Shown one piece after another: positions 30,254 through 48,691 of a DNA stretch of 64,000 nt. Numbering within the stretch: position 1 is the stretch's first letter; each line of letters begins with the position of its first letter. The DNA is from an uncultured Verrucomicrobiae bacterium (GTDB lineage: Bacteria > Verrucomicrobiota > Verrucomicrobiia > Limisphaerales > Palsa-1400): positions 128,001 to 192,000 of the forward strand of contig CAVXRD010000001.1 of the NCBI GenBank assembly GCA_963764165.1, read 5' to 3'. A model generated the notes under the pieces. It made no database searches. It saw nothing but the letters and a program-made list of their open reading frames with translations, and was not told where the DNA came from. The translations under genes and the position numbers were made by a program.

Positions 30254-33200
30254 GGTCTAATTTCTTCAATCGGTATGTTTTGATAACCTTCCGGTAAATG
30301 CTTTCGGATTTGTTGGATTCGAGCGGCTTTAAGTTTAGCACTTCCTGTTTTCAAATCCCACACTGCTTGAGGTTGCAATTTGTCGCCCTTAACCACATCC
30401 AAGCGTACGGAACCGGGTGTGCCATAAGGGACTTCTTTTCCGTTAAGATATGACACCTCCGAATTCAGTCCCATCGCTTTTACTTCTTTTGCAAATGCCG
30501 TATGTGCCTTTGTGCCAAAACCCGGCATGCCCTCCGTTAGTCCAAACTCCTCTTCAACAGTTTTCGCCGCACGCCCAGCGGCTCCCATTAAATTTGCGGC
30601 AGTTGATTCCGTCAAGGCGAATTCCTGCGCACCTTGAACCGTATTCGCGCCATTTACTTCCAGACTCACGGCCTCCCCGCTGACATTAGCCCCAAACAAC
30701 AGGTCACCAGCCACGTCGACTGTCGCGCCAATCCCGTAACCCAATGCGAGTCCATTGGCAACGTCCAGAAGATAGCCGCCCAGTATCGCGTTTTCAGTCA
30801 GCCTGTTTTGAACGCCGATAAGCGTTGCCTGAAGCGCATTTCCGGCAGCTAATACTGCTCCATTGTACATTCCATCCAGGCCCGCAGCGATAGTGGTGCT
30901 CATCATCAAGCCACCAAGATCGCCATCATGCCCTGATGGGTCCCTCATGTTCACCGGATCCGCTTCGCAGTACAAGTATTTATGAAGCGACAACGGGTCT
31001 TCCTGATTCCCGTCATAACTATCGCTCGTAATGAAGCGGCCAAGGTTGGGCGCGTAATATCGCGGCCCAAGACTGTACATTTCAAGATATGGATCATAGA
31101 ACTCGCAGTCATACAGGTAGAAGTTTTGATCCGACCCTGTTTGATACAGCAGGTTTCCATAACCATCATAGTCATAGGTGTCCTGTACGCTTCCCGAGCC
31201 ATCTAAAAGCAGCCGCACGCTCCCTTGCCCGTCAAATCCCGTGTAACGAACGGGCGAATTGCTCCAGTTTTGGCTAATCAAGCTCAAGCCCCACACGTAA
31301 CTAACGGTGGCCGACATGGCTTCGGGCCAGTACTGCGCCACCACCTGCGGATACCCGCTCGGACTCATTTCATCCACAAGGTAAAGATTGATGCCGTAGG
31401 ATTCATTGACCCGGTTGCCAGAGTGATCATACTCCAACACATCGTCCCCTTGGTCGGTGATCAGCCGGTTCTGCGCGTCGTAATAATTTCCCGAAGCCGA
31501 GCTGGGCAGGGCCAGCGTGTTGCCGTTGGCGTCGTAGTTTGTGTTCGCATTGTTCGGAATATTATCGCTGTCAATCAAATCACGATGGTCGTAAGCATTC
31601 GTTTGCCCGGCCACCGGGGAACCGGCCCAAGTCCGGCGCGTCAAGCGGTTTCCCGCTGGGTCGTACGTATTTGTCACCGCCCCGATGAAACTTCCTGACG
31701 TCCCGTAAAACGCCTCGGACGTCAACCGGCTCACGCGGGCTAGGCCGGAGCCGTCATAACCCCACGCCACCTGGCCCAATGAGCCGTGGCCGCCGGATTC
31801 GACCACATTGGTCCGGCTCCCCACCATGCTCAACCCGTAAGCAAAGCTCTGCACCAGCACCCCACTACCATTGGTCAAGGCCAGCCACGTCAGACGGTTT
31901 TGCGCGTTGTAACTACAGCTATGCTGCACGCCGTTGGGATACGCGAATCCCGCGAGATTTCCGACATTATCGTAACGATATGTGGCAGCATTGGTGGCCA
32001 GATAATTGCTGACGCTGGACAGACGCCCCAAAAAGTCATAGCCGTAGCCCACGCTTACATCCGGCGGACCGCCGGATATGGCCACCACGCCCGGACTGTA
32101 AGCCTGCATGGTCTGCACCTGATTATTGGGTGTGTAGGTATATTGAAGAGCGCCTTCGGGACAGGTCTTGACGATCAGCCGGCCCACATTGTCATAAACA
32201 TAATCCTCCTCTCGGAGAAGGCTTCCGCTGTTCGTAATCCAGACGTGGCTTAATTGGCCGCCAGGCAGATATGCATATGTTTCCGTTGTGGTTGTTTCCC
32301 CAAGGTTAATCGGCGGCAGAACCTTGGTAGCTATCCGCCCCACCACGTCTTCGGTCGTGACGATGGTTTTGCCGCGGAAATCCGTCACCGAAGTTTGTTG
32401 CACTTTGATACTCGAACCGTTGGTCAGAGGGACGTCGGCGTAGGCGGTGATTTCGGCGGAGCCGTCGGGCAGGATGCGCATGGTGCGTCGGCCCAGGGCG
32501 TCGTATTGGTATTGTGTGAGGTTGCCGTTGGCGTCGCTCTGCGAGAGTTGGTTGCCGCGCTCGTCGTAGGTGTACTGGTAGGTCAGTTGACCGGAAGAAG
32601 CTGTGTCCAGGATGACTGAGGTCAGCAATCCACGGTAATCGTAGGTGTAGGCTGTCTTAACTCCCGCCTCGTCTGTCGTCCCAATTTTGTTCCCGGCCCC
32701 GTCATACGCAATGGCCGTCTGATGGCGCGTCCCGTCGGCCAGCACCGGATACGTCGTCAACACCAGCCGGTTGGCCGTGTCATATAAATAATCTGTTTCG
32801 TGGCCGTTGGCGTCAATCATCGCGATCTGGTTGCCATTGGGGTCGTAAAAATACTGCGTCGAGTTCGTGCCGCCGGTGGGCGCGATGGTTTGATTAATGC
32901 TTGACAGGTTCACCGTGTAATTGGTGTAAACCAGCACGTTGGTGCGGCGTCCGGCGGCATCATAACTGTATTGCGTGACGTTGCCATTGGCGGCCATGGA
33001 ATATCGCACACGACCGGCCAGATCATAGACCGTCCGCGTGAAGGAGACAAGCGTTCCCGCGCTCGTGTTGGTCATTCCGTAAATGGTGTCCGCTCCCGAG
33101 CGGGTGATGAGAGCGGTGTTCGTCTGCCTGGTCAGCGACACACCCGAAAGCCGCTCCACACAAACCACCCGCCCTGCTCCGTCGTAGACATTCAAGCTCG

Positions 33201-36200
33201 CGGCATTGGTGGTCGCGCCGCCCGTGCCAGGCACGGACCGATCCTGCGTGTAGAGAACATGATTCAACTCGTCATACGTCATCCGCGAAACCGTCCCGTC
33301 CGGATACGCCGTTTCGATCAAATTCCCCGCCGCGTCGTAGGTGTTGGTGGTGGAGCGATTGTCCACGTCCGTCGTGATGTAGGGATGCCCGGCGTGGTCA
33401 TAAATCGTCGTGCTGATGCGGCCAATCGCATCAATTGTGGCCACCAGGCGATTCTCCGCGTCATATTGGTATTGCGTCACGATGGGCGTGTTTGGAACGC
33501 CATTGACGGTCGCCGTCGTGGTCTCGGAAGTCCGGTTGCCGTTGGCGTCGTAAGTGTAACTGGTCGTCGAGACAGGCATTCCACTGCCAGACGGCCATTG
33601 CTGCGTCATCGACGCGACTTCGCCCGAGCTGTTCGGCTGCGGCTGGCCGCTGCCGGGATAATATGCATAGGAGGTCGTCACCGGATATGACACGCCTGGC
33701 GATTGCTGCGTCGAGCTGGCCACCAACCCGCCCGCCGCCACGCCGTTAATTCCCATGATGGCCGGCGCGTAAGTCATCGACGATTGCGAGCCGGTCGGGT
33801 CTTGCGATTGCAGCAGATTGCCACTGGACGGATCGTAAACATTGGTCGTGCCGTTGCCATTGGCGTCCGTCGACAACGTCGGCTGACCCATCACGTTCAA
33901 CTGCACCGACGTCGAATTTCCCAGCGCATCCGACTGGCTGATGGGCCGGTTCAACGAATCGTATTGGGTCTTCTGCGAATTGCCGTAGCTATCGGTCTGC
34001 GCGGTCACATTGCCATTGTTGTCATAAGTATAGGTCGTGCCCGTGTAACCCAGATCGCTGATCGGCTGCAACACACTGCCGACAGCGCCGGACGGAGCGT
34101 AATTCACCGTCACCGTCTGGTTCGACCCGCTGACCATGCGCGACACCGTTTGCACTGTGGTTGTTGGGTTGTAAGTGTAAATGGACGTGTGCAGGAAGGC
34201 ATCAAACTGATTCGAGAGCGAACCATCGCCAGCGGCAGAATACAGATTGCTGGTCACCAAGATTCCACGCCCGTCGAACACCTGCGTGAGCCGATTCGTG
34301 TTCACGTCATTGTTCGAATCATATCCGTAAGTCGTCCGCTCGAAACCGCCCGTGGCGTAATTGGTGACCTTGTCCACCTCCATCAAAAGGCCATTGGTCG
34401 GATTCGCGCCCTGCACCAAATAACGCACCACCCAATTGGTGGCATACGCCCCACTATGCATCCCCGCCGACGCATCGACGCTATCGGAGACGTTGATCCA
34501 CGTCTCCGGCGGGCTGGTGTTGGTAATTGTGGTATAACTGAATTGAATCACCCGCCCATTGGAGTGCTGCATGGCCGTCAGCCGGTTGAGGTTGTCATAG
34601 CCATAACTGAGTGAATTGCCATTCGCGTCCGTAATCTGTTTCAGCAGCCACACCCCCGAAGGCTGAATGAACTGATAGGTTGTATTGGCTGCGGTGGTGT
34701 AGACAAAGGTATCAGGGCTAAACTGAGTTGTCTGGTTGTCAGGGTCTCCAGTTAAAAAGAATGTGTTATGGCCCCAAGTATTCAAATCGTCTGAATAGCC
34801 CAAGCTCGCCGTCCCCTGCATTGCCTCGGTGCACGTCAAAGTGCCCTCATTCGGGATGCACGGCTGAAAGGACAGTGACAGGCCCGACCCCTGAGGGTCA
34901 TCGGCCGGCGCCAAAGTCGGCGAAAAGTAAGCAGAAGCGCCGCCGGGAAGCGTAAGAGTGACCAGATGGCTTGTTGTCTCCGCAGCGTAGGCGACTCCAG
35001 AATAGTCGAAACCAGCTTCGATCCACCCATTAGCCAGATTTCCATTGGCGACTTGGACGGAGGCGACACTCCAACTAGGCGTCCAGCCAATCCCTAGATT
35101 ACCCGGGCTATTGGTAATCTGGCTCGTGTAAGAACGGGAAATCGACAAGGGCAATCCCGGCGCGGGCAATTGCAGATCGGTCGCTGAGGTTTGATACATC
35201 GTCAGCGGCGGTTGAACGAGCATTGTCATGGTGCAGGTGGCAGATGTGAACGTCGCGCCGTTTTGGTAGTCTCCAAGCAGCGCCACGGTCGGCGAAACCG
35301 GAAGAGTCACCGCCTGCGCCGTCACCGCATGCGTTCCACCCGGCACATTGAACCACGTCATTTGCGCCACCGGCCCCGGCGCGGAGCCAATCGCGTTCGG
35401 CCCGTCATAGAACGTCACCATCGCCCCGGCCCCGTTGGTCGTTTGCACCGACGCCGTCAGCGTCAAATTCGTGGGCCCCACATTCGTAATGGAACCGTTC
35501 GTAGCCGGCACAACATACGTGCCCACAGTCAATACGATTGGATTAGCATCCGGAGCGCTGAATATGTTTGAGTACAGCACCGAAGCCGAGGAAACCCCGC
35601 TGATCTGCCCCTGCTGGTTGACATCCACCAAATCAAACCAAAACACCGTATTGTCAACCGTGTTGCTCGGGACTGGAAACGAGAAGGCCGTGCCCGGTCC
35701 CGAATAAATGAGATAATCCGGCGGCAGCGACCAGGAAAGCCGGTAGCTCGCCGCCCCGCTGACCGGCGACCACGAAAGCAGAATGTTCGACGACCCGCAC
35801 GCGGCCGTGAAATTCTGCGGCGGCATGCTCGCCAGCGTGGCCGAGGCCACGATGGCAATCGGCGCGGAATCCACCGTTGTGCCAAAAGGCGTCGCGGCCT
35901 CGACCACATAATAATTGGTCACGCCATTTTGAACCGGCGAACAGATGAACGACGTTCCGTAAGTGTTTCCCAGCGCCGTGTAAGGCCCCCCCGCCGAGGG
36001 CCCGCTCTTGATGAAATAGCTGGCCGCGCCGATCCCATTCCATTGCAGCGAGACATAACCGTTCCCCGGTGTTCCGATGGCCGTCAGGATGCCCGTCGCC
36101 GAAGGCGTGACGTTGGTGGCCACCGCCCTGAAACAGTTGAAATTGCTGTCGAAGGCCGTGACCCGGTAGGCGTAGGTCACGCCATTTACAACATCATAAT

Positions 36201-39200
36201 CATAGTAGGCCAGGCCGTATCCTGTGCCGCTTAGCACCTGGTAGGAAGCATCCGTATTGGTCTGGAATTTCCTCTCCACAAAACACTGATACTGCGGAGG
36301 GTTGCCCAGCGACTCCCAATGCAGGTAGACCAGGCTGTCGAAACCAGTCGCGGCGAGCGTGAAGTTGGTTGAAATGTTGGTTGACAAACCAAGCGTGTTT
36401 GAGGGCGTGGCCGAGGCAAATGCAGGCTTGCCCAGCACGTAATCAAAATAACTCCAATTTGTGTTCGCATTCGTCACTTCGTAGAGCACCTCCGGCGTCA
36501 CCTGATAATTGTAAGTCGTGTCATTGCTCAGCCCCAGATGCCAAAACCTGGTGTCATTGAGATTGGTGGCGACGAACGCGAAGTTAGTAGATCCATTCGT
36601 GTTAAATCCAACGTTGTAAGACGTCGCATTCGAGACCGCCTGCCACTCCAAATACACCTGTTCATTGCCCGCCACGGCAACCACCTTAAGCGGCGCCCCG
36701 ATGTTACTGAGGTCGGCGCACTCTGATATCGGCCCGACAATGGTTGAATAGATCCCAGGCTCACCATTCGACACGGCGCAAACCCTGAACCAATAGATAT
36801 ATTCAGGTATCAATCCCACGTCGTTGGTCATATTGTAAGTATAAGTATCGGTTGAGATGTTGCTCAGGCTCGATGCGGAGTAGAATACAGGCCAGGGAAA
36901 CGATGACGCTGTAGGCGCTTGCTTATTTTGATCGTCTTGACGGCAGACATATGTTTCAATATCAAACCCGTCCAGCCCGCTCGTCGCGTCAAACTGCCAC
37001 GTTAATTCGATTTCACCGTTCTGCGGGACCCAGTTGGTCAAGATGATGGGGGCTGGAACGCAGGTTGAGGGGTCCAGCGCAATAGGGCCATTGGTGATGG
37101 ACGGCGGGCCAAAACCCGCGCCATTTCCAGCCACGACATAATAGTAGTAGTTAACGCCGCCCTCCGCCGATATATCAAGATTCGACTCAACCGTTGTTTC
37201 ATTAATGATGGAGTACGGGCCGCTAAGGCTGGTGCTTCGGCAAACCTGATACACCGTCGCGCCGTCTACAGCATACCAAACCAGGTGGATGTCCTGGCAC
37301 TGCGAATCAATGCCATAATTCGTCGACCCGTATAAATAGGAAGAGCTCCATATCACGTTGGTCGGCGGCGGATAAGGCGTCGCCGAGGCTTGGTCAGACT
37401 GCGGCGTTTCACTGCCCGCATACATTGCTGAAACAGTGTAATAATAAGTCGTCCCATTGCTTAGCCCGACATCGAGGAACGAGTTGCTCGTTGAGGTTCC
37501 AACGACTCCGTACGTCCCTCCGTTCGTCAATGAGCGATAAACATTGTAATAAGCCGCTCCTGGAAACGAGGCCCAATTGAGCTGAATTTCCGTGCTCAAT
37601 GGCGTCGCCACCAACTGCCTTGGCCGATCCGTAACGACGGACCCGCACGCAAAGACCGACTGCCATCCAATCCAAACGTTGGTTGCAAACTCAATATTGG
37701 GATTCAAGATTGGTTGAGCCGACTGGTAGTCAGGATAATTATAATCGAAACCATTTTGGTCGAACTCGAGATCACCCCATTCCCATACGTTGCCGGATGA
37801 GTCCAGGGCGACGCACGAATCCCACGCCACATCGATTTTGATGATGTTTGACAATCCGTAAACCTGGACGGGATTCGTATACACGCCGCTGGAAGCATCA
37901 TAGCCTTGGGCCGCAAGCCCCCACTGCCAGACAGTTCCATCTGACATCAGGGCCAGCGAGTATAGCCCGCCTGCGCCGATCGAGACAACGTTGGTTGGGA
38001 GCCCAGGTGCTTGTTGAGGAACATTGGTGAATCCGCAATCGAGAGGAGGCCCGAAAATGCAGCCATTGAGCAAAGCCAGCCGCGGCACAAATCCAAATTC
38101 CCACACCGTTCCATTAGATCTAAGGGCCATGTAGTGCGAGGCCGAAGCCGACACTTGTATTACTGGGGAGCCCGTGTCAAAGTCCGTCACCCTGGTCGGA
38201 ACTTCATCCGGCCCTCCGAAAAGGGTGAAAAACCCCGCATTTACGACATTATAGTCGTCTAGATCTGTATCGAGCGACTGCATTTCTCCCCAGCACCAGA
38301 CGGAGCCATCGACACCCAGGGCCAAGGCTGACATAGCCTTGTCTGAAGCGACCTCAGCCACCGAGATTTGTTCCCCTTGCGCGTTCGTGATTCCAGTAAT
38401 GGGGTTTGCCTTAAAGGTGCCCACTCCTTGGAATGTATTATTGCCTTCCCACTCGTCAAGCTCTCTCCCAATCTCTCCAAACTGGAGGTCGCCCCAGCTC
38501 CAAATTGTTCTATTTGTGCCCACAGCCCTGATGGCGTAGATCGCGAGATAGCCCAGCGAGACGTCAACAGTGTTTGTCCAAGGCGCCAGCACGCCGGTGT
38601 CATTCGACATTTCCACGAGAATTGGGGTGGTAAAGTAGGGCAGAAGCTCGTTGGTTCCCACGCCCTCGCCGAAGATTCCGTAAGCGGCGGTCATGGATCC
38701 CCACATAAGGAGATTTCCGGCTTCGTTCACCGCAGCTCCCCCATCAAACGGATCGTGGCTAAATGCCTTTAGATTCGTCAACCCGATGGATTGGACAGGA
38801 GTTGACACCGAAAGCGGATTTGTCCATGGCCACGCCTTGGATGGCAGGTCTGGGGTGGGAATCGGCAAGGAAGCGAAGTTCCCATCCGCCAGACTGCCCC
38901 ACTTGTTATTTCCCCACCCTAGCATAACCGTGGGTGGCAGCGGGATGATCGGCACCGGCACTTGATTTGTAGACAGCATGGCGCCGTCCGAAACGCGGAC
39001 GAAAAAGGCGGGAACGGCTATGCCTTGGTGGCTGATCCCGGGCGTCCATGCCATCGTGCTTTGGCTGTTAAACGTGCAATTGGGTTTTGAGGCGGTCGGT
39101 GGCGCAAACGGCGTTCCGTTGATGACCAGGGTGCCATTTGTCACCGTTTCAATTTCAAAATAGAATGGCCAGCCGTTCGGATCCCGCGCGTCGGACTTGT

Positions 39201-42200
39201 TCGTCACAGCCGCAAACGACACGCCGTAGGCCCCTCCTCCAATAGAACTGCACCAAACATTCGATACGCTGGAAATCGTCGGCGGCAACGCGGCATTCGT
39301 CACTAACAGAACAACCGACGAGCTGGTGACGCTGGTGTAACCATTGGCAATGATCACCGAGTACGTTCCTGAATCGTTGGTGTGAACCTGGAGCAGCGTC
39401 AGCACATTGCTTTCGCCGCCGATGACGCTGCCCACGCCGCTGACCAGATTGCCATAGCCCGCCTTCGACCATTGATAGGTAACGCCGCAAGACCCATTTT
39501 GAGCCACAGCAAAGACTGCGTTGCCACCAGAGGCCATGGTCAGGTTGGTCGGCTGTCGGAAGATCGAAATCGTGGTTGGGTCTGAGATGGTGATGGCAGC
39601 GGTCAAACTCGTGACCGCGCCATAACTGTTCGTGACAATTACGGTGAAAGAATTCGTCCCAACGTTCGTGCAAGCCGCAGTGTAGTTGGATTGTGTGGCC
39701 CCCGCGATATTGGTGCCGCTCAATTGCCATTGATAAGCGAGTGGGAGTGAGCCGTCCACGGCGACAGATAGCGTCACCGGCGTTCCAAGACACGTTCCTT
39801 GGGTTTCCGGCTGCGACACAATGACCGGCGGCGTGCTGGCCGGAGCGATGATTTGGACAAGAACGTTCGTGCTGCTGTTTCCACCGCAACTGTCGGAGAC
39901 TTCCACCGAGTAAAGTCCGGTGTTCGCGTATTCGGCGTTTGATATCGTATAACTGCTGGCGGTTGCTCCGCTGATGGAGCTGCCGTTGAATGACCACTGA
40001 TATCCAAGCGTTCCCATCGCTCCCGGTGCCGCGGCGCTCAGCGTGACAGTGCTGCTCAAATTCGTCGTCACCGGTCCGGGACTGACATAAAGATTGGTCG
40101 GCAGGGCGCTGACGCTCACGACTGCGGAGGCCGAATCTGATCCATACGCATTTGTAACAATGACCTTGTAAGTCTGCGTTGCGCTCGTCGCTGAGACGGC
40201 GCCTATGCTCAGCGCCCAATTTGTTGAAACGGTGTTGGTTATTGGCGCGTCGTTCAGATACCACTGGTAATGGAATGTTGAAGCCCCGCCCGCCACCACT
40301 TGCAGCGTAAGAAATTCTCCTTCGCAGACAGTCCGGTTTGTCGGCGGAACGACAATGAAAGGTGACTGATTGTAGCAGTCAGGAACGGACAGTGTCGCAA
40401 TGGAGCTGGTCACGGTGCCATTTGTATTCGAGACAACTACCGAATAGTAGTTGGTGCTTGGGTAAAAGCTCGTTATCGATATCGAGTCATTGGTAGCGCT
40501 GGAAATCGCGAATCCGTTGGACATCCATTGAAACGAGATAGGCTTGCATCCTGATACATCCACCCAGAGATTAACCTCCTTGCCTGGACAAATCGTCTGG
40601 CTGACCGGTTGCGTTTTAATGACTGGCGACCACACGTTGGTTGGCCCAAGGTTGGTGTTGACATCGACTTGAATTGGGGATGAAATCTCAGCTCCCACAG
40701 CGTTCCAAATCACACAGTCGTAGGTACCTGCGTTCGTGACATTTGCTGTGGGAATTAAACAGCCCGCAATGTTCGCAAACGTGCATTTCTGCGCACACGG
40801 GTCGAATGAGGTTCTCGCCGGCCACCCGTTAATATAACCATTGGCGTTTGGAATTGGTTGACCGTTGAACCGCCATTGGTAGATGATCGGGAAGTAGTTT
40901 GGCGCCACTGGCAGGCCGAAAGGCTCAACCCACCGAAGAAAGGGGTAAAGCCAGAGATCGGGCGCATCTTGCCACCAGGTTGGATCGTAATTCCACCAAA
41001 GGCCCAGAGCATCCAAAGAGCGCGGGAGGACATCCAAGGTCAAAATCAAAGGAGAACCTTCATCGACATTTGTGGAACTGGGCTGCCACTTGACCAACGG
41101 CGGTGATTCCACCCAACTAACCCCGAATTCACCCTCGACATACTGCAATGGATAGTTGCAGAGCGCCCAAATTGTCGGAGGGTGAGGTATGATATAATCA
41201 GCCCCCGGACACCACTGAAGTGCCGATGGATCAATGATTGGATATGCGTAATAGGTATAGGCCTCGATCCCCGTCTGGACTGTCATTGGGGGGCTGATAT
41301 TGGTTCCGCAGGAGCCGATAATTTCCAGCTGAATTGTTCCCGCCTTGCCAATATACGCGCTCGGGTCAAGATATGAGTTAGTGGCTCCCGGGATGGGGCT
41401 GGCGTTGGCCAGCCATTGGTAGGTGACGTTGGGGGAATTGGTTGCCGCAACCATATCCCCTGGGATCAAAGCTGCTCCAACGTCAAGATCGTACGGCACG
41501 CCTTCCAGATAGTTAAATTGCCCTTCGACGGTTCCTGATCCGACCCAGTTTATGATGTTCCACGCATTTGGAAACTCGGCCAGTTCGGTATCTGGCATGC
41601 CATAGGGCAATGAATCTGAAGAGTTTGAGAGCACTCCCCAGTAAACAAATTGCGCGTCCTGCATGGCCATCAGGAGATTTGTCGTGCACGTGACGGTTTG
41701 GTAGCCATTGCTCGCCACCAAGGCGTAATTTCCCAGATCGGTTGACTGAAAATTGGAAATCGTGAGGGTGGCTGAATTTGCCCCGCTTATCTGCGTGTTG
41801 TCCGTCAGATTGACGCCGTTAAGCTGCCATTGAAGACTTAGCGGCTCAATCCCATTGACCGTAGATCTGAGAGTGACGGTGGCCCAGGTGCAGATGCTCG
41901 TTGGGGTTGCCGCGATTGTGGGCGTCAAGTCGATTGGACAATTATATGTCGTCAGCTCATCAAGCTGGCCGCGCATTTGGTTCGTGCCGGTGTGATCGCT
42001 GCCAATGCTGAATCCGTAGAGCTCGCGCTGCGCAATCGTGGGGTAATTGGTCACTCCCGGACCAATTTGCGCCACAGTTCCATCCAAAATTAAGGACGTT
42101 TGATCCGGGCCGTAATTGAGCGTCACTTGATGCCACGCATTCGACGTCCAATTTGTGATGGACACGGCGATGTTGGTCGTAGCAACCAAATTGGAACTGG

Positions 42201-45200
42201 TCGCGAAATAAAGCCATGAACCGGCCGAATCCACAAAAAGCGACCACCAGCCATTGGTTGAACTGGCATCGCCCAATTGCAGAAGTGTTCCGTGCGCTCC
42301 CCCGGGGCCGGAACCACCGTTCCAATCCGGCGCGAACCAGAAATTTACCGCCCCGTTAATGCAGTTGATGTTCAGGGTGCCGTTTGCTTGGGCGTATGGA
42401 TAACTCAGATTGGCGGAAATATTGGTATCGACCTTAAGAGCGTTAGTCCAAGGACTGGCAGGATTCTGGAGGCCGTAGCTCGCCAAAGGCTGCTGGCCGG
42501 GGCTTCCGACCCAAGGGCCGCCCGCATTTCCCTCGTTGAAGCTCCAATAGCCGAGGAGCAACGCATTTGTATTCGAACAGTTTTGCTCCACATCACCGTC
42601 TTCAAACACACTGATGATGTTGGTGATCGCCGATGTTCCCGATTGGCAGACGACGGTGAAGATTCCGGGCTGCGCGAGCGAAATATACGTGATATTGGTC
42701 AGCTGCCCGTCTAGCGACCACACCGCAGGCAAGCCGCTTGCGGGCAGATTCGGCGACGATTTGGCGACAATTTCCAAATTGCTGGAAGAAACGGGAATGG
42801 AATATGTCAGCAACGTAGCATTGCTGGAAGTGAACGGGTAGTTCGTCGGCGGCGCCAGCGAGGCAACTTCCACAACGGTGAGGCTGGCATTGGAGCTGGT
42901 GGCTGTTCCAGCCACATTTGTAACGCAGACCGAATAAGTTCCCGAGTTGGCCAGCTGCGCGTTTGCGACGGTGTAAGAACTCGAAGTGGCAGTGGATATA
43001 TTGGTTCCGTTGAGCATCCACTGATAGGATAGCGGAGTGCTCCCGGCTGATGGTGCGCTGAAGATGACAGTTGCCCCGAGGCCCACGACCTCGCTGGCGG
43101 GCTGCGCCACTAAATAGGGAGGACCGACCGGCAAACCGTTTGTTCCAAGAGCAGGATAGTGAAACCCGATGCTGACAGCGTTTGTTCCGTCAATCGTGTT
43201 GTTTGTCATCACGGTGAAATAAGACAACTCGGCCGCGGAAGCTGACTGGCTCCCGGCATTTATCAGTGTCAAATTTGTCGGTGAAAATATGCTTGGATAA
43301 TAGTAAGGTCCGAACGCTCCGCTCTGAAACGCAGGGCTGCTACTCAGAATGACAGCGTTGTTTTCAGGGGGCACAACACCGTAGTTTGTGGTGACGTAGG
43401 CGTTGTTGCTGCACACGTCCATCGGTTTCTGCGTGCCGCTGCCCTGGGCAAACGCTGTTTGGTCAAGCAGGTTGTCGCGCACCGAGAATATGCCGGAGTT
43501 ACGGTGGGTGATCGTCAGGGAACCATTCCAAAATAAATTATTCTCCGCCGTAATCGGGATATTCGAACCGAGGTCGCTTAACGTGACCGCCGCGCGTTGG
43601 AAAAGGCAGTTCGTCAACGCGGCAGGCATGAATTTTAGGTTCACAGTTGCGTTGAAAACCTGGCAGTTTTGGAGAACGACAGGCATCGCAGCATCTTCCG
43701 GATAGACTGCCCCGTCCAACGAGAGGGTCGAGAATTCCGTGAATGAAAATGCCGCCGAGGAGGAATCCGTCTGCACAGGCGTGATCAAATTTCCCTGCCA
43801 CGCAACGGTCGGCCAGCACCAGTTCGTATTGGATTGCTCCTGCACCGTGTTATATTTCACGAATAAAGCTGGGCTGGTCGCGTTGCCCTCGAAATTGAGA
43901 ATTCCGTTTGCATAAAGCCAAAACCCGTATTCAAGTCCGAACGCCGCAACGGCTGTCCCTGGGAGCACAGTTACGGTGGCGTTTGAGATCGCGGCGTTCA
44001 CCGCCCAATCCAAGGGCGGGTAATGATATCCAAGGTCAAGCTGGTTCCCGATGTTTCTCGGCACTACGGGGCCAAGGTTGGTGGTATTCGTGATCCAAGA
44101 TTGATTGAAAACCAACGGCGGATAGGTGGTCAAAGACTCCAAATCGGCAAGCACCGCAGCATTGATGTTTGTCGTACCCGCATTCTGATTTGTGCTGCCG
44201 TTCGCTAGATAATAGCCGCCAGCCCCTACGGTCTGATAAAAGCCCGTGTTAGTCGAATTCACGACGCTGCTGCTGAACGCGATTCCAGAAGTATTGGAAA
44301 CCCCTGTGAAGATGCAATTCGTTGCAAAACAGATATTGCTGGACCCGGTCATGAACGTCGAAATCTGATCCGCCGTCACGTTTACCGCATTGAGGGAAGC
44401 AAAGTTTGAGCCGACGCTATTGATGTAAAAGGCGGTGGTGCATTGGGCAAAAAGCACGTTATAGGCGTCGATAGGAAATCCCGACGCTGATCCGGTATAC
44501 GATAGATAAGGAACTAAAAACGCGCTCGAACAATCAAAAAATTGGCAGTCCCATATCTGGATGGGAGTCGAGCTGAACCACGAAATAACGCCCATAATGG
44601 CGTCGGCGGAGTACGAAAAGCGCAGATATTTGAAGACAAGGGCATTTGTCCCCGGATTATTGAAGCAGATGTATGCTGCCGCGCACGTATTTGGAGTCCC
44701 GGTGCTGCCGCTGATGGTCGATCCGGCAGTGTTGTCATTCATGGAAGTGAAGACCGCCGGGCGATACGCCGCTGTTTGGCATACGATGTTCGAAATCAAG
44801 ATTTCAGCGCCTGAATTATTCGTGTATTTGACTACGGCCCCGCCTTCCACTGTTAGCGTGCCCGAAACATTGACTGTACCCGTCACGAAATAGGTAGAAT
44901 CGCCCTGGAGCGTGAGATTGTTCGTGCTGCTCAGGAGATTATAGTCCACCACCAAGCCGGATTGATTTTTCTTCATTCCGGCGAACAGCATCGAATTTGT
45001 TTCGCTCTCAATCTGTCTAGACCATTTCTTGGGGACGTCCAAGAATGCAAGGCGGCGAACCGAACCACGCCCAGGATCAAGATTCGAGGCGTGAGGGAGA
45101 TTCTGAAGCTGATTGGAAATCGCCTCGAAAGGTATGGATTCAATCAAAAAGGTCCTGCCATTCACCTGAACCCATCTTTTTCTCACGCTTCCGGCGGGCA

Positions 45201-46005
45201 CCGGCGCATCCGCCCCATTGAGATAAAGCGCCTCTCCCACTCCCATCTTCATCTCACCGAAGTCCAGCACTTGGTCGTCGACTGTGCTGCCATTGGTGAT
45301 CGAGCTTGCCTGAGGTTCAGCGGAATTGAAAAACTCGGTATAGATCTGCAAAATTGACCCGGCGTCAGACAGGCCGTAACTCGCGGGACCGGCTGGCGCT
45401 TGCCGCAGCACAATGTCCTGGCTCAGTCCGGCCTTCGTGTAGGTGTACCAAATATCCGCATTCAGATTGCTGAAAGCTCCGGAGTATAACACCTGATTTG
45501 TCGCCACAATGGTGCCAGTGCAATTTTTCAGTGTTGCAATCATGGCATTGGATCCAGTCGAAGTATCGTACCAGGCAAGGCCCACCACCGAGCTTGAAAG
45601 CTGCTTTCCATCTGGCGTCGCAACCACAACCGCGCCGCCCGGCGCATTCGCGTTAAGAGCCCAGGTGACTTTATGCCGACCCTGGACCGCTTGCGCTCCG
45701 CCTGGAACGGCGTCAACTTCCTCAACGGAGTCAGCGTATTGCCCATTCGTGAGGTAGCAAAGTCCGGTTGCGATTTCCGTGTAGGATTGAATATTGGTTG
45801 TTACCGTTCCAATGGAATTTGTCTGCAACTGCAAGCGCTGCCAAAGCCGCGAATGAGGAGTCCGCCCGGTGATGGCGTAGTCGCTTGGAGTTGATGTGGC
45901 GGTCGAGTTTGTGGTTTGAACTTGAGCCAGGACGCGGCCTGGGCCAAGGACAACTCCAGTTAAAGCTATTAGGAACAATCGGCGGGCTAAAGGGGGAAAA
46001 TTCAT
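30250..46005 (-). CDS. Giant secreted RHS/YD polymorphic toxin (Ig, LamG, RCC1-like, FN3 and RHS regions) with PD-(D/E)XK-type nuclease tip
   Basis: Signal peptide MNFPPL...VLAQ. Ig repeats (LSYQW...SGTYSV), LamG (WHQVTL...LDELTTY), RCC1-like (ALxSxGTVWxWG), FN3 and YD repeats, then RYYAPNLGRF and DPSGH. Tip GTKAH...EVSY...RLDVV...DLKTG. Confidence 0.9.
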   Translation of the reverse strand: MNFPPLARRLFLIALTGVVLGPGRVLAQVQTTNSTATSTPSDYAITGRTPHSRLWQRLQLQTNSIGTVTTNIQSYTEIATGLCYLTNGQYADSVEEVDAVPGGAQAVQGRHKVTWALNANAPGGAVVVATPDGKQLSSSVVGLAWYDTSTGSNAMIATLKNCTGTIVATNQVLYSGAFSNLNADIWYTYTKAGLSQDIVLRQAPAGPASYGLSDAGSILQIYTEFFNSAEPQASSITNGSTVDDQVLDFGEMKMGVGEALYLNGADAPVPAGSVRKRWVQVNGRTFLIESIPFEAISNQLQNLPHASNLDPGRGSVRRLAFLDVPKKWSRQIESETNSMLFAGMKKNQSGLVVDYNLLSSTNNLTLQGDSTYFVTGTVNVSGTLTVEGGAVVKYTNNSGAEILISNIVCQTAAYRPAVFTSMNDNTAGSTISGSTGTPNTCAAAYICFNNPGTNALVFKYLRFSYSADAIMGVISWFSSTPIQIWDCQFFDCSSAFLVPYLSYTGSASGFPIDAYNVLFAQCTTAFYINSVGSNFASLNAVNVTADQISTFMTGSSNICFATNCIFTGVSNTSGIAFSSSVVNSTNTGFYQTVGAGGYYLANGSTNQNAGTTNINAAVLADLESLTTYPPLVFNQSWITNTTNLGPVVPRNIGNQLDLGYHYPPLDWAVNAAISNATVTVLPGTAVAAFGLEYGFWLYANGILNFEGNATSPALFVKYNTVQEQSNTNWCWPTVAWQGNLITPVQTDSSSAAFSFTEFSTLSLDGAVYPEDAAMPVVLQNCQVFNATVNLKFMPAALTNCLFQRAAVTLSDLGSNIPITAENNLFWNGSLTITHRNSGIFSVRDNLLDQTAFAQGSGTQKPMDVCSNNAYVTTNYGVVPPENNAVILSSSPAFQSGAFGPYYYPSIFSPTNLTLINAGSQSASAAELSYFTVMTNNTIDGTNAVSIGFHYPALGTNGLPVGPPYLVAQPASEVVGLGATVIFSAPSAGSTPLSYQWMLNGTNISTATSSSYTVANAQLANSGTYSVCVTNVAGTATSSNASLTVVEVASLAPPTNYPFTSSNATLLTYSIPVSSSNLEIVAKSSPNLPASGLPAVWSLDGQLTNITYISLAQPGIFTVVCQSGTSAITNIISVFEDGDVEQNCSNTNALLLGYWSFNEGNAGGPWVGSPGQQPLASYGLQNPASPWTNALKVDTNISANLSYPYAQANGTLNINCINGAVNFWFAPDWNGGSGPGGAHGTLLQLGDASSTNGWWSLFVDSAGSWLYFATSSNLVATTNIAVSITNWTSNAWHQVTLNYGPDQTSLILDGTVAQIGPGVTNYPTIAQRELYGFSIGSDHTGTNQMRGQLDELTTYNCPIDLTPTIAATPTSICTWATVTLRSTVNGIEPLSLQWQLNGVNLTDNTQISGANSATLTISNFQSTDLGNYALVASNGYQTVTCTTNLLMAMQDAQFVYWGVLSNSSDSLPYGMPDTELAEFPNAWNIINWVGSGTVEGQFNYLEGVPYDLDVGAALIPGDMVAATNSPNVTYQWLANASPIPGATNSYLDPSAYIGKAGTIQLEIIGSCGTNISPPMTVQTGIEAYTYYAYPIIDPSALQWCPGADYIIPHPPTIWALCNYPLQYVEGEFGVSWVESPPLVKWQPSSTNVDEGSPLILTLDVLPRSLDALGLWWNYDPTWWQDAPDLWLYPFLRWVEPFGLPVAPNYFPIIYQWRFNGQPIPNANGYINGWPARTSFDPCAQKCTFANIAGCLIPTANVTNAGTYDCVIWNAVGAEISSPIQVDVNTNLGPTNVWSPVIKTQPVSQTICPGKEVNLWVDVSGCKPISFQWMSNGFAISSATNDSISITSFYPSTNYYSVVVSNTNGTVTSSIATLSVPDCYNQSPFIVVPPTNRTVCEGEFLTLQVVAGGASTFHYQWYLNDAPITNTVSTNWALSIGAVSATSATQTYKVIVTNAYGSDSASAVVSVSALPTNLYVSPGPVTTNLSSTVTLSAAAPGAMGTLGYQWSFNGSSISGATASSYTISNAEYANTGLYSVEVSDSCGGNSSTNVLVQIIAPASTPPVIVSQPETQGTCLGTPVTLSVAVDGSLPLAYQWQLSGTNIAGATQSNYTAACTNVGTNSFTVIVTNSYGAVTSLTAAITISDPTTISIFRQPTNLTMASGGNAVFAVAQNGSCGVTYQWSKAGYGNLVSGVGSVIGGESNVLTLLQVHTNDSGTYSVIIANGYTSVTSSSVVLLVTNAALPPTISSVSNVWCSSIGGGAYGVSFAAVTNKSDARDPNGWPFYFEIETVTNGTLVINGTPFAPPTASKPNCTFNSQSTMAWTPGISHQGIAVPAFFVRVSDGAMLSTNQVPVPIIPLPPTVMLGWGNNKWGSLADGNFASLPIPTPDLPSKAWPWTNPLSVSTPVQSIGLTNLKAFSHDPFDGGAAVNEAGNLLMWGSMTAAYGIFGEGVGTNELLPYFTTPILVEMSNDTGVLAPWTNTVDVSLGYLAIYAIRAVGTNRTIWSWGDLQFGEIGRELDEWEGNNTFQGVGTFKANPITGITNAQGEQISVAEVASDKAMSALALGVDGSVWCWGEMQSLDTDLDDYNVVNAGFFTLFGGPDEVPTRVTDFDTGSPVIQVSASASHYMALRSNGTVWEFGFVPRLALLNGCIFGPPLDCGFTNVPQQAPGLPTNVVSIGAGGLYSLALMSDGTVWQWGLAAQGYDASSGVYTNPVQVYGLSNIIKIDVAWDSCVALDSSGNVWEWGDLEFDQNGFDYNYPDYQSAQPILNPNIEFATNVWIGWQSVFACGSVVTDRPRQLVATPLSTEIQLNWASFPGAAYYNVYRSLTNGGTYGVVGTSTSNSFLDVGLSNGTTYYYTVSAMYAGSETPQSDQASATPYPPPTNVIWSSSYLYGSTNYGIDSQCQDIHLVWYAVDGATVYQVCRSTSLSGPYSIINETTVESNLDISAEGGVNYYYYVVAGNGAGFGPPSITNGPIALDPSTCVPAPIILTNWVPQNGEIELTWQFDATSGLDGFDIETYVCRQDDQNKQAPTASSFPWPVFYSASSLSNISTDTYTYNMTNDVGLIPEYIYWFRVCAVSNGEPGIYSTIVGPISECADLSNIGAPLKVVAVAGNEQVYLEWQAVSNATSYNVGFNTNGSTNFAFVATNLNDTRFWHLGLSNDTTYNYQVTPEVLYEVTNANTNWSYFDYVLGKPAFASATPSNTLGLSTNISTNFTLAATGFDSLVYLHWESLGNPPQYQCFVERKFQTNTDASYQVLSGTGYGLAYYDYDVVNGVTYAYRVTAFDSNFNCFRAVATNVTPSATGILTAIGTPGNGYVSLQWNGIGAASYFIKSGPSAGGPYTALGNTYGTSFICSPVQNGVTNYYVVEAATPFGTTVDSAPIAIVASATLASMPPQNFTAACGSSNILLSWSPVSGAASYRLSWSLPPDYLIYSGPGTAFSFPVPSNTVDNTVFWFDLVDVNQQGQISGVSSASVLYSNIFSAPDANPIVLTVGTYVVPATNGSITNVGPTNLTLTASVQTTNGAGAMVTFYDGPNAIGSAPGPVAQMTWFNVPGGTHAVTAQAVTLPVSPTVALLGDYQNGATFTSATCTMTMLVQPPLTMYQTSATDLQLPAPGLPLSISRSYTSQITNSPGNLGIGWTPSWSVASVQVANGNLANGWIEAGFDYSGVAYAAETTSHLVTLTLPGGASAYFSPTLAPADDPQGSGLSLSFQPCIPNEGTLTCTEAMQGTASLGYSDDLNTWGHNTFFLTGDPDNQTTQFSPDTFVYTTAANTTYQFIQPSGVWLLKQITDANGNSLSYGYDNLNRLTAMQHSNGRVIQFSYTTITNTSPPETWINVSDSVDASAGMHSGAYATNWVVRYLVQGANPTNGLLMEVDKVTNYATGGFERTTYGYDSNNDVNTNRLTQVFDGRGILVTSNLYSAAGDGSLSNQFDAFLHTSIYTYNPTTTVQTVSRMVSGSNQTVTVNYAPSGAVGSVLQPISDLGYTGTTYTYDNNGNVTAQTDSYGNSQKTQYDSLNRPISQSDALGNSTSVQLNVMGQPTLSTDANGNGTTNVYDPSSGNLLQSQDPTGSQSSMTYAPAIMGINGVAAGGLVASSTQQSPGVSYPVTTSYAYYPGSGQPQPNSSGEVASMTQQWPSGSGMPVSTTSYTYDANGNRTSETTTATVNGVPNTPIVTQYQYDAENRLVATIDAIGRISTTIYDHAGHPYITTDVDNRSTTNTYDAAGNLIETAYPDGTVSRMTYDELNHVLYTQDRSVPGTGGATTNAASLNVYDGAGRVVCVERLSGVSLTRQTNTALITRSGADTIYGMTNTSAGTLVSFTRTVYDLAGRVRYSMAANGNVTQYSYDAAGRRTNVLVYTNYTVNLSSINQTIAPTGGTNSTQYFYDPNGNQIAMIDANGHETDYLYDTANRLVLTTYPVLADGTRHQTAIAYDGAGNKIGTTDEAGVKTAYTYDYRGLLTSVILDTASSGQLTYQYTYDERGNQLSQSDANGNLTQYQYDALGRRTMRILPDGSAEITAYADVPLTNGSSIKVQQTSVTDFRGKTIVTTEDVVGRIATKVLPPINLGETTTTETYAYLPGGQLSHVWITNSGSLLREEDYVYDNVGRLIVKTCPEGALQYTYTPNNQVQTMQAYSPGVVAISGGPPDVSVGYGYDFLGRLSSVSNYLATNAATYRYDNVGNLAGFAYPNGVQHSCSYNAQNRLTWLALTNGSGVLVQSFAYGLSMVGSRTNVVESGGHGSLGQVAWGYDGSGLARVSRLTSEAFYGTSGSFIGAVTNTYDPAGNRLTRRTWAGSPVAGQTNAYDHRDLIDSDNIPNNANTNYDANGNTLALPSSASGNYYDAQNRLITDQGDDVLEYDHSGNRVNESYGINLYLVDEMSPSGYPQVVAQYWPEAMSATVSYVWGLSLISQNWSNSPVRYTGFDGQGSVRLLLDGSGSVQDTYDYDGYGNLLYQTGSDQNFYLYDCEFYDPYLEMYSLGPRYYAPNLGRFITSDSYDGNQEDPLSLHKYLYCEADPVNMRDPSGHDGDLGGLMMSTTIAAGLDGMYNGAVLAAGNALQATLIGVQNRLTENAILGGYLLDVANGLALGYGIGATVDVAGDLLFGANVSGEAVSLEVNGANTVQGAQEFALTESTAANLMGAAGRAAKTVEEEFGLTEGMPGFGTKAHTAFAKEVKAMGLNSEVSYLNGKEVPYGTPGSVRLDVVKGDKLQPQAVWDLKTGSAKLKAARIQQIRKHLPEGYQNIPIEEIRP

Positions 46006-46754
46006 GGAGTGTTGCCTGCCGTGTCTTGCGGGGGAGCGCGGCAATGAAATTGGTTGTTGAATATTGAAATTGCGAGCCTGACAAACCCTTGCTACATCGC
46101 GAGCGATAGCAGACCCAATAACATTTCTCGGGAAGAGAGTTTCTACAGATCAATTGAGAACGTCAATCTATTTTTGAAGATAATTCAAAGAAAATGGATC
46201 CAATTGTCACTTACTGTCGACTTCTATCGATGCGGAGAACAGTAGATAGCCAAATTGTAGCTTATCGTCTGCTATTCGCCGGGCCTCGATTCCTCAAAAA
46301 TAGATTGACGCCCCAATCGCCAGGTGTGATGAAAAAAGGTGAAGCTCTCAATAATATAATATTGAGGCGGCGGCGCAGCACCGCCCTACCGCAATTTGGC
46401 AGGGCGGACCTGTGCGTCCGCCCAAATATTCGTGTGGAATATCACGGTCAATCGCATCTAATCGCCCTTGCGTGCGATTTTTTGCTGGCAGTCAACAAAT
46501 TGTTTTGATAGAAAAGCAAGCCACGCCGGGAAACGACGCAGGAACGGGTACTTCTTTGGCGCGATGAAAGTGATCTGATGCAATTTCGAAACGAGCATCT
46601 TGGGGACGAAAAAGTGAAAGGCCGCAAGCTGTGACGGGGCGGAGCTTTGCCGAATTTTTTCCTTGGCGCCACGGGCCAGGAATTACTTCGTCCGTTTGGC
46701 CCAAGCCAAATCGCGCTCCAGCGTCAACAACGTGCAAGTGTTGTGCAGTTTAAG

Positions 46755-47015
46755 CTAACCTATTCGGATTTGCCGCTCGTATTCTTCATGAGGCCCGATC
46801 CAAAACCATTTTGCCGCGCCACCTTCTACGATGGCAAGGGCTCGATAATTGTCTGTAACGCGCGCAGACCAGAATCCTCCAACTTTTTTAAAATGAAGCG
46901 AAGGATGCTGCGGGTTTTGAAGCCACAACCTGAAGGCCCTTCGCGCCGCACGTTGGATTTCTGGCGGCAGTTGCGCGAATCGGTTACGAAAGCTTTTTGT
47001 GGTCGAGGAACGCAT
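46755..47015 (-). CDS. RelE/ParE-superfamily toxin
   Basis: 86 aa: LPPEIQRAARRAFRLWLQNPQHPSLHFKKV..WSARV..NYRAL...WFWIGPHEEY. Confidence 0.82.
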   Translation of the reverse strand: MRSSTTKSFRNRFAQLPPEIQRAARRAFRLWLQNPQHPSLHFKKVGGFWSARVTDNYRALAIVEGGAAKWFWIGPHEEYERQIRIG

Positions 47016-47214
47016 CAAGCGGTGCCTCCGACTCGCCCGGCTCCTCTTTCTGAAGACGCTCGTAAAACTCGCGCAGCCTGCCAGACCCCGCATCGTGCTC
47101 GATTTGGCGATCCCATTCGTCCGCATGGCGCTCGCGCAGATGCCGAACGAGTTCGAAAAACTGCTCGCGCGGCAACCCTTCGATTTGCCTCTCTATTTCC
47201 TGCAACGTCGTCAC
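46984..47214 (-). CDS. Putative cognate antitoxin
   Basis: Small acidic protein (EIERQIEGLP...WDRQIEHDAGSGRL) upstream of and overlapping the toxin. GTG start. Confidence 0.75.
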   Translation of the reverse strand: MTTLQEIERQIEGLPREQFFELVRHLRERHADEWDRQIEHDAGSGRLREFYERLQKEEPGESEAPLDAFLDHKKLS

Positions 47215-47255
47215 ACATACAGATTATCTTAACCAAGCTTGGTCATCAAGCCCAA

Positions 47256-47360
47256 GCTTCAACGGAGCCGCGCTCGCTTGAGCGCGGAATGTATTGGTTT
47301 TCACTCGTTTTAACATGCAACGAGCCAGCTTCAACGGGACCGCCTTCGACGGACGATTTG
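47256..47360 (-). CRISPR. Single-spacer mini-array (crRNA-like regulatory RNA), inverted relative to the main array
   Basis: Minus strand: degenerate repeat ending CCGTTGAAGC (47360-47328), 36-nt spacer (47327-47292), then a near-canonical repeat CATTCCGCGCTCAAGCGAGCGCGGCTCCGTTGAAGC (47291-47256, 33/36 identity). Confidence 0.88.
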
Positions 47361-47370
47361 TTGGAGACGA

Positions 47371-47399
47371 TTGACAGTTCAAGAATTATTGCTTAACAT
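47371..47399 (+). promoter_or_regulatory. sigma70-type promoter of the cas operon
   Basis: TTGACA-N17-TAACAT, 80 bp upstream of the csb1 ATG. Confidence 0.8.
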
Positions 47400-47406
47400 G
47401 CAACTA

Positions 47407-47435
47407 GACATAACACGAATATCTTAAATTGTCAA
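47407..47435 (-). promoter_or_regulatory. Opposing promoter facing the mini-array and TA genes
   Basis: Minus strand TTGACA-N17-TATGTC with an extended TGn. The -10 box is imperfect. Confidence 0.55.
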
Positions 47436-47479
47436 ACTCAGCGGAACAATCGCCGCAGAAACCAGAAACAGAACATATT

Positions 47480-48691
47480 ATGAATGAAGAACCAAAACCA
47501 AAAGTCCTCAGTCTGGACCTCTTAAAATCAGCCGTGAGCGGAAGTGCCGCCGCATTTCGTTCCCGCACCCGTCTACAACCTGCTGGGGGTGAAGGAGACA
47601 AAGTATTTCCGCCAACTTATGCCGGAGCGGTCTACGCCAAGGAGGAGCGGCAAATCAACGGCGCAAAGGTTCCATGCGTGCTGCTTGATTCTGTCCAAGC
47701 GCAAGCGAACCGCTTGGAAGAGGCGCTGCAACGGGCATTGGATGCGGGGACGCTCAAGAACATCCCGGTGTTGAATGTGGATTTTACCGGCCTTGGTCTC
47801 TTGGATGAAATTGGACGAGTGAGCACCCTTGAAGCGCCACATCGAATCGCTGATGCGATCCTTCGTGACAGCCTTTATGAGGGGCAGCCGTTTCGGAAGA
47901 GCACACTCGGGAAGTCATTAGATCAAGCTAGCCTGCAAAACGCTACTCCGCTTTATAAACTCTGCCCGACGGCGTTGATTTTCGGCATATGGGATTCGAC
48001 AGGTCCAAAAGGTGGACTCGGCGCGAAATTTCAGCGGGCTCTCGTATCGGAAATCATCGGCGTGAATGCCGAGATCGGTGTAAAAACAAGTAGCCGAATT
48101 GATCCGCTTGGCATGCGCGCGGCGGCAATGGTGGTCAAGAAGCCAGACGGCAGCTACGAACTTGCGAGCGACAAGGCAAAGGATGCTGTTTCACCGTCAG
48201 GAGTAAACCACGGCAACATTCCACCCGACATCACTAAGCCAGGAGGGGCCGGTGGAGCAACCTTGGACTACGCCGAACAAACGGTTGTCCTGTCCCTGCC
48301 CGCGCTGCGTAAGTTGCGTTTTCCTGTAGATGGTACAACAATCCCCGAGCGGGACGCGGCGGGGCGGACCGTACTTGCAGCATTGGCTCTGACGGCGGCC
48401 ACGCTGGCGGCGGAGAGCGGATTCGATCTCCGTTCCCGATGTCTGCTCTGGCCGACTGAGGCGATGAAGTGGGAATTGCTGGAGACGCCAGGGAAGACTC
48501 CCACCGAGTTCACCGTCACAGCAAAAGAAGCTATCAAGCTTTTGGAGGAAGCGGTTGTGGCGGCGGAAAAGCTCGGCTTGGTATGGCAAAAAGAGCCGGT
48601 GAAGTTAATTCCCTCTCCGAATCTGGTTGCCCTGCTCAAGCGGTCGCAGGACATTTCTGCCAAGTCGCCAGCGGGCGCATCGGCAGAATAA
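47480..48691 (+). CDS. csb1: Type I-G Cas7 (Csb1)
   Basis: LQPAGGEGDKVFPPTY, LLDSVQAQANRLE, APHRIADAILRDS, FGIWDSTG, SSRIDPLG, DLRSRCLL. Confidence 0.93.
   Translation: MNEEPKPKVLSLDLLKSAVSGSAAAFRSRTRLQPAGGEGDKVFPPTYAGAVYAKEERQINGAKVPCVLLDSVQAQANRLEEALQRALDAGTLKNIPVLNVDFTGLGLLDEIGRVSTLEAPHRIADAILRDSLYEGQPFRKSTLGKSLDQASLQNATPLYKLCPTALIFGIWDSTGPKGGLGAKFQRALVSEIIGVNAEIGVKTSSRIDPLGMRAAAMVVKKPDGSYELASDKAKDAVSPSGVNHGNIPPDITKPGGAGGATLDYAEQTVVLSLPALRKLRFPVDGTTIPERDAAGRTVLAALALTAATLAAESGFDLRSRCLLWPTEAMKWELLETPGKTPTEFTVTAKEAIKLLEEAVVAAEKLGLVWQKEPVKLIPSPNLVALLKRSQDISAKSPAGASAE

Follow-up and report, generated by a model that had tools for sequence, protein, structure and literature searches.

A CreR-like mini-array beside a type I-G CRISPR-Cas operon of Verrucomicrobiota and a toxin-antitoxin pair with a predicted promoter of its own

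Genes and features of the locus

The window is a stretch of 64,000 nucleotides from an uncultured Verrucomicrobiae bacterium. The CRISPR-Cas operon to the right of the guide target is of type I-G, with the order csb1, csb2, cas3g, cas8g-type, cas4/1, cas2 and array. On the opposite strand, reading away from csb1, are a two-repeat mini-array and a predicted toxin-antitoxin (TA) pair, together with stubs of two further genes (Table 1). Directly beyond the TA region is an ORF of 5264 amino acids (30250-46044, minus strand) with Ig-like and RHS/YD-like repeats recognised by eye and a distinct C-terminal end. A REP-like palindromic element of about 75 bp, with dozens of copies genome-wide, is found at 46356-46431. 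A search of Rfam with positions 46050-47500 gave two matches only, both at chance level.

Table 1 Positions in the window of the features discussed
Feature	Position	Strand	Description
Non-coding stretch	46474..46625		Homologous to DNA behind UPF0175 in L059, L078 and L101; 75-77% over about 150 nt
UPF0175 3' stub	46683..46721	-	LERDLAWAKRTK, then stop; 11/12 residues shared with L059; 90% over 42 nt to L078
Predicted toxin, 86 aa	46755..47015	-	PF24732 ParE_like; RelE/YoeB/YafQ fold
Predicted antitoxin, 76 aa	46984..47214	-	GTG start; no named family; 32-nt overlap with toxin
Predicted leaderless TA promoter	47215..47249	-	TTGATG 47249-47244, 17 nt, TAATCT 47226-47221, 6 nt, GTG
R2	47256..47291	-	92% identity to main-array repeat
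Guide spacer, 36 nt	47292..47327	-	From sequence
R1, degenerate repeat	47328..47352	-	5-bp hairpin 47352-47340, 4 nt, 8-nt handle 47335-47328; centroid fold
DUF3368 PIN 5' stub	47354..47380	-	ELSIVSNKS, relatives EMSIVSNTS; start codon lost
Predicted cas promoter	47371..47399	+	TTGACA-N17-TAACAT; -10 inside guide target; called by consensus scan
Guide target	47393..47413	-	PAM TTA 47413-47411; protospacer 47410-47393
Predicted leftward promoter	47407..47435	-	TTGACA 47435-47430, 17-nt spacer, TG 47415-47414, TATGTC 47412-47407
csb1/cas7g, first operon gene	47480..48691	+	Pfam; NCBIfam TIGR02570, TIGR02165, TIGR02621, NF049934 across operon

According to the available text of the report on the type I-G system of T. 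sulfidiphilus, its PAM is TTN, every sixth base of the guide duplex is flipped, and Csb2 cleavage, 4 nt 3' of the hairpin, leaves an 8-nt handle (10.1101/2022.08.08.503147). Both R2 and the shortened R1 fit this cutting rule, and the cut in R2 is predicted between 47264 and 47263. Since the hairpin of R1 has been kept 4 nt from its handle, the arrangement suggests that the guide is still selected. The degenerate repeat-spacer-repeat unit outside the array, with its 8-nt handle intact, is of the CreR type. The first 18 nt of the guide spacer are identical in five related loci (L077, L078, L079, L101 and L127), and the handle-plus-seed pattern gave no matches in viral contigs. Between R2 (47291-47256) and the antitoxin GTG are 41 bp, as given in the first-pass annotation. 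These were considered as a second guide and rejected, the one site matching at 13 of 15 positions, on contig C3, being taken as chance.

The guide target and the predicted divergent promoters

The guide (47327-47292) pairs with the protospacer (47410-47393) at 16 of the first 18 positions, with mismatches at positions 3 and 6, and the pairing stops after position 18. No other site in the genome (7.0 Mb) combines a TTN PAM with matches at 13 or more of the 15 positions scored. A partial match of this kind, at the cas promoter, with a TTA PAM and too short for a full R-loop, is also characteristic of CreR. The mismatch at position 3 of the seed (47408 in the window) is common to L077, L078, L098 and L101, and possibly tunes repression. 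The degenerate first repeat of the array is itself overlapped by the guide target in L031, L069, L070 and loci almost identical to them.

The first-pass annotation had described a leftward promoter with a second TTGACA, 17 bp from a TATGTC that overlaps the PAM and seed; its coordinates, spacing and overlap were exact. The TG upstream makes the leftward -10 an extended -10, which covers the PAM and protospacer positions 1-4. It agrees with the consensus at three of six positions, with the final T missing, and the promoter was therefore missed by the consensus scan, which near the target called only the plus-strand cas promoter. TTGACA and TGTTATG are unchanged across the window, L077, L078 and L101, with a spacer of 16 in the three relatives. 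With both of its elements retained in these relatives, whose guide is the same, the predicted promoter is more than a chance match. A leftward TTGAC within 70 nt of the target was found in 17 of 27 target-bearing loci, compared with 20 of 169 segments inside csb1, a contrast overstated by the use of coding sequence as background.

As the -10 elements of both promoters, cas and leftward, fall within the guide target, a single R-loop is likely to damp cas and the guide itself. An earlier claim had been that a single R-loop silences cas, the guide and the TA pair together; silencing of the first two is likely, and the part concerning the TA pair was not upheld, as the pair has its own predicted promoter. 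According to the proposed mechanism, guide-loaded Cascade would bind 47413-47393 without full pairing and damp both promoters, so that both cas and the guide would be under feedback control. On the PAM side the leftward -35 is 20-25 nt outside the target, and in several relatives the leftward TTGAC is 22-59 nt past the target start, which would fit Cascade repressing the cas promoter only, with the leftward promoter escaping or the array being read from another start. This is very unlikely, since the PAM and seed lie on the leftward -10 itself, and since CreA of Haloarcula hispanica represses the divergent toxin and cas promoters from one site, as shown in the part of the report available (10.1101/2023.03.10.532045).

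No terminator-like sites were found between the leftward promoter and the TA genes. Read-through is thus plausible, and may be large, yet it would carry both TA genes. The proposed leftward transcript reaching into the TA pair, with Csb2 cutting at 47264/47263, is plausible as well.

The toxin-antitoxin pair and its predicted promoter

The toxin had been called RelE/ParE-like, which both its domain match and its fold confirmed. Its model (pLDDT 93.9) had YoeB, RelE and YafQ as top structural matches with a TM of about 0.7, and among the matches listed its identity to RelE-family chains was 9-22%; a PDB sequence search with the toxin profile gave no meaningful match. Residues K43, R52, R58, H76 and Y79 are invariant among 25 homologues, and the conserved residues would point to an mRNA nuclease over a gyrase poison. 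The antitoxin was given no family by Pfam, NCBIfam or Atlas, the nearest named Atlas clusters (0.76) being leads only. The two small genes overlap, antitoxin first, and a toxin match adjoins 24 of 27 antitoxin homologues. The paired layout, the RelE/ParE fold and the conserved basic and aromatic residues place the pair in the type II TA/RelE superfamily.

The predicted antitoxin-toxin complex scored 0.77, the best control 0.01. The mark used is reached by 116 of 157 solved pairs and by 2 of 215 mismatched pairs; complexes of the RelE family have been solved before. At least 91% of the contacts agreed between runs, and the pLDDT of the partner was at least 81. The model sets W34 and D38 of the antitoxin on R58, H76 and Y79 of the toxin, and supports binding of the two proteins. 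Additional members of the same TA family, two of their toxins having in-frame stops, and a UPF0175-DUF3368 pair in the usual order on C3 are found in this genome (G000, at C1:328128, C2:2879917, C3:759444 and C4:310469; L180).

Within the 41 bp in front of the antitoxin, the predicted leaderless promoter agrees with the consensus at 7 of 12 positions, and the consensus scan did not call it. The same cassette follows R2 in L075, with the two hexamers and the 16 nt next to the start codon unchanged and a different spacer. A strict pattern (TTG-N3-N16-19-TAnnnT-N5-8-start) was sought across homologues. A search of the phylum for the antitoxin gave matches in 29 of 401 genomes, with 29 loci besides that of the window, 27 of them with a usable start (L152 and L162 were dropped). 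None of the 27 has csb1 within 1.5 kb, and L157 is 0.45 kb from a cas3. The pattern was present in 13 of these 27 copies (mean 0.2 and maximum 3 in 1000 shuffles, 0.3% with shifted anchors), in six of eight closer copies without cas genes nearby (two of them identical) and in six of seven csb1-linked copies; the promoter of L102 does not fit it, and the baseline was 1.4% of 570 crudely chosen genome starts. The guide matches the TA promoter at 6 of 15 positions in the window and at 6-7 of 15 across all five loci tested. Transcription of the TA pair thus likely starts mainly at its own leaderless promoter, unmatched by the guide. The first-pass annotation had itself named a promoter inside 47215-47255 as speaking against Cascade control of the pair, and the comparative evidence indicates that one is present there.

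A perfect 12-bp palindrome (47243-47232) lies within the spacer of the TA promoter; it was considered as a TA operator and rejected, being not conserved in L075. In six other loci (L028, L037, L060, L082, L087 and L114), upstream of csb1, the spacer between -35 and -10 of the promoter of a cargo antitoxin is made up of a CRISPR repeat's 3' half, with the handle ending exactly 12 nt before the start codon. These could be repeat-bounded exchangeable cassettes or insulators cut by Csb2.

Of the 124 related loci, 6 have a member of the TA family at most 3 kb from csb1; among whole genomes, 29 of 401 have any match. Its presence near csb1 is far above the genome-wide rate, which may reflect either selection for coupling or a cassette hotspot. 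An array followed by the TA pair is also found in L075, L102 and L211. In the closest relatives the targeted promoter would serve a DUF3368 PIN gene. Among the 100 closest genomes csb1 matched in only seven, and the layout of the window was seen in none within 1.5 kb, either by eye or by TA match.

These observations bear on whether loss of Cascade could harm the cell by opening the leftward promoter, so that toxin exceeds antitoxin and the cell arrests. Toxin excess could come about if read-through occluded the leaderless promoter, or if the antitoxin were poorly translated and the toxin made from its own GGAGG. The toxin has such a site and the antitoxin has none; there is no terminator; the layout of array and TA pair recurs in the three loci named; and the TA pair would have displaced the cassette close behind a guide that had lost its toxin. 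However, among the seven csb1-linked copies GGAGG occurs at this spacing only in the window, and Shine-Dalgarno motifs are near background in the genome (5.8% versus 4.3%, with a crude gene set), and a switch in the translation ratio was rejected on these two grounds. Moreover, the start of the toxin overlaps the antitoxin, which favours coupling, and the pair's own promoter is untargeted by the guide. Arrest through toxin excess is hence unlikely. As the pair is complete and antitoxin-first, its de-repression would not kill.

PIN-type relatives, probable descent of the locus and known systems

The survey covered 124 csb1 loci, 48 from genomes and 76 from metagenomes. Besides the window, 48 had a minus-strand repeat-like match, and 38 mini-array loci remained after nine near-duplicates, one weak match and one lone repeat were dropped. 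Of the 38, 28 carry a target with a flanking PAM in the stretch from csb1 to the array (p < 0.01, 200 shuffles). The order csb1, target, divergent DUF3368 PIN gene, mini-array and UPF0175, the last with a predicted promoter of its own, was found in 16 of all 124 loci. Removal of two duplicates leaves 14 such loci, of which one has only a PIN stub and two have broken PIN frames; two further csb1 loci end at the contig edge after PIN. The mini-array occupies a gap of 156-184 nt between PIN and UPF0175. A target between csb1 and the PIN start was present in 12 of 15 PIN loci, and in L087 with its first array (13/15 positions); none was found there in L055 and L133. The leaderless promoter pattern precedes UPF0175 in 8 of 12. 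In L018 a 3' stub of PIN stands before the array (2833-2949) and UPF0175 is intact behind it, an independent loss of PIN.

Searching the phylum with one PIN yielded 30 loci, with matches in 32 of 401 genomes. The usual order, UPF0175 and then PIN, was found in 22 of the loci, six had no detected UPF0175 and two were inverted; both of the latter adjoin csb1 with an array, and one repeats L027. The CRISPR-linked PINs retain the D/N, E and D motif residues of ordinary DUF3368 copies. In the relatives, by comparison of layouts, the usual pair is inverted and split, with only the predicted toxin gene behind the targeted promoter.

The window has remnants of this layout. Nine PIN codons remain and adjoin R1; the start codon is altered and about 510 bp are missing; the opposite strand of the stub still bears the cas -35. 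To L078, the identity is 76% over 93 nt in the promoter region, PIN stub included, 89% over 93 nt in the array and 77% over about 150 nt past the UPF0175 stub. The RelE-fold cassette between R2 and the UPF0175 stub is 80% identical to L075 over 202 nt, including R2 and the promoter. The homology of the non-coding stretch behind the UPF0175 stub places the window in the same chromosomal context as L059, L078 and L101; this stretch was also matched in G018 and G011, and Rfam gave no match for it. A quick csb1 tree, built from 71 of 117 rows (46 that were short or below 60% identity were left out) and with many forks open, put the window in a clade of six rows with 98% support. Four of its five partners are PIN-type (L077, L059, L078 and L079), and the fifth, L061, has too little flank. 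The place of L101 in the tree is unreliable because its protein is partial. We infer that the locus of the window descends from the order PIN, mini-array, UPF0175 that is kept in its closest relatives.

In the ancestor, a targeted promoter would have led into PIN and the mini-array, with UPF0175 behind the array on a separate promoter. PIN would then have been deleted, with five shared nucleotides as the likely site, and a self-contained TA cassette with its own promoter would have taken the place of the UPF0175 cassette. The deletion took most of R1, the seed has a mismatch at position 3 and the leftward -10 is weak, and the guide circuit might be a decaying relic of the PIN loss, its RNA poorly processed or bound and nothing repressed. 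That seems quite unlikely, as an intact handle still follows the 5-bp hairpin of R1 at the correct spacing, the intact PIN loci L077, L078 and L098 have the position-3 mismatch too, and targets are kept by many arrays without PIN.

The reading preferred here, at a probability of roughly 0.7, is that Cascade would damp cas and the guide through one site, the TA pair running independently from its own start and stabilising the locus. Loss of Cascade would raise cas, the guide and some read-through RNA, but antitoxin would arrive along with toxin. The weak leftward -10, the 7-of-12 consensus match of the TA promoter, the lack of a terminator, the recurrence of the TA pair behind an array and near csb1, the seed mismatch at position 3 and the open forks of the quick tree weigh against it. 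The first-pass annotation had taken the TA pair to be an addiction or abortive-infection backup released on loss of Cascade. This was not supported, since the pair is antitoxin-first, its predicted promoter is untargeted and the PIN gene that stands behind the targeted promoter in the closest relatives has been deleted here; stabilisation of the locus by the pair as ordinary addiction cargo is more likely.

On its predicted features the window is a CreR-like locus, not a CreTA one. It resembles the regulatory mini-arrays, in the available parts of their descriptions, in its degenerate two-repeat array opposite cas and its PAM-flanked partial match to the cas promoter (10.1101/2023.03.10.532045; 10.1101/2023.03.03.530964). 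It differs in the reach of the target, which includes the predicted promoter of the guide, and in the stubs of a lost toxin. In the same parts of these reports no I-G case is tested, while creA-like elements are mentioned for I-U (10.1101/2023.03.10.532045). In CreTA of H. hispanica and in CrePA, as far as the available texts describe them, one target lies between divergent toxin and cas promoters (10.1101/2023.03.10.532045; 10.1101/2024.01.05.574328). In the window no toxin stands alone after the targeted promoter: the predicted promoter of its TA pair is not the guide target, and the antitoxin precedes and overlaps the toxin. The PIN-type relatives do have a PAM-flanked target between cas and the toxin start, with PIN in the toxin's place, and differ from CreTA and CrePA in adding a protein antitoxin on a separate promoter and in the toxin being a PIN protein. 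They are, as read from their sequences, a new CreTA variant in type I-G.

For type I-D, the accessible part of one report describes TA cargo targeted by mini-arrays, with targets in the cargo promoters and gene-shuffling hotspots, and already proposes such control with addiction and abortive infection (10.1101/2023.03.03.530964). The present loci are of type I-G, and in the relatives the array separates the two genes of an inverted pair, leaving the toxin gene alone behind the target. CRISIS, from the text available, has the order target, gene, repeat unit, as in the PIN-type relatives, but it is of type I-C, inside the cas operon, with multi-domain defence genes (10.1101/2024.12.27.630466). 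In the window the gene of this order is deleted, and the TA pair is behind the array rather than between target and array. Protein toxins and supervised systems in other subtypes are described in sources likewise available in part (10.1101/2024.01.05.574328; 10.1101/2024.12.27.630466; PMC12737573; 10.1101/2024.10.29.618823). COG2886/UPF0175 and COG2405/DUF3368 are a predicted or putative TA pair whose usual order, in the available portions, is antitoxin first and adjacent; the relatives have the same families and motif residues (PMC2701414, PMC5499597, PMC6929052). With the RelE/YoeB/YafQ type II systems the pair in the window shares the fold, the antitoxin-first overlap and the predicted complex; its antitoxin is of no named family and its toxin is distant in sequence from the chains listed. 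The literature search, with thin coverage of subscription papers and preprint supplements, gave no account of a DUF3368/UPF0175 pair whose two genes flank a guide array. For type I-C, a MazF toxin countered by an RNA as well as a protein antitoxin has reportedly been described. This case was found neither in the literature search nor in PMC12724246; if real, it makes the split layout less new.

A wider proposal, given somewhat less than an even chance, is that a two-lock guard is widespread in type I-G systems of Verrucomicrobiota, with the TA pair inverted and split around the guide array. Cascade would shut the PIN promoter, and antitoxin made at a constant level from a separate promoter would set a threshold, which anti-CRISPR or cas loss would overshoot, leading to arrest. 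The cassettes would be exchangeable and repeat-bounded, and the window a toxin-deleted escape with a swapped-in pair.

The comparison tells apart two look-alikes: a guide may simply have a TA pair downstream of it, or it may have a toxin under its control. The relatives, which would extend guide-based guarding to type I-G, suggest that an ordinary protein TA pair can be brought under CRISPR control through gene reordering alone, and they offer a set of named loci that can be cloned for tests of the DUF3368/UPF0175 pair, which is uncharacterised. The window would represent a predicted way out of addiction, the toxin having been deleted and the autoregulatory guide kept, and such a deletion would be a concrete route from a CreTA-like to a CreR-like locus.
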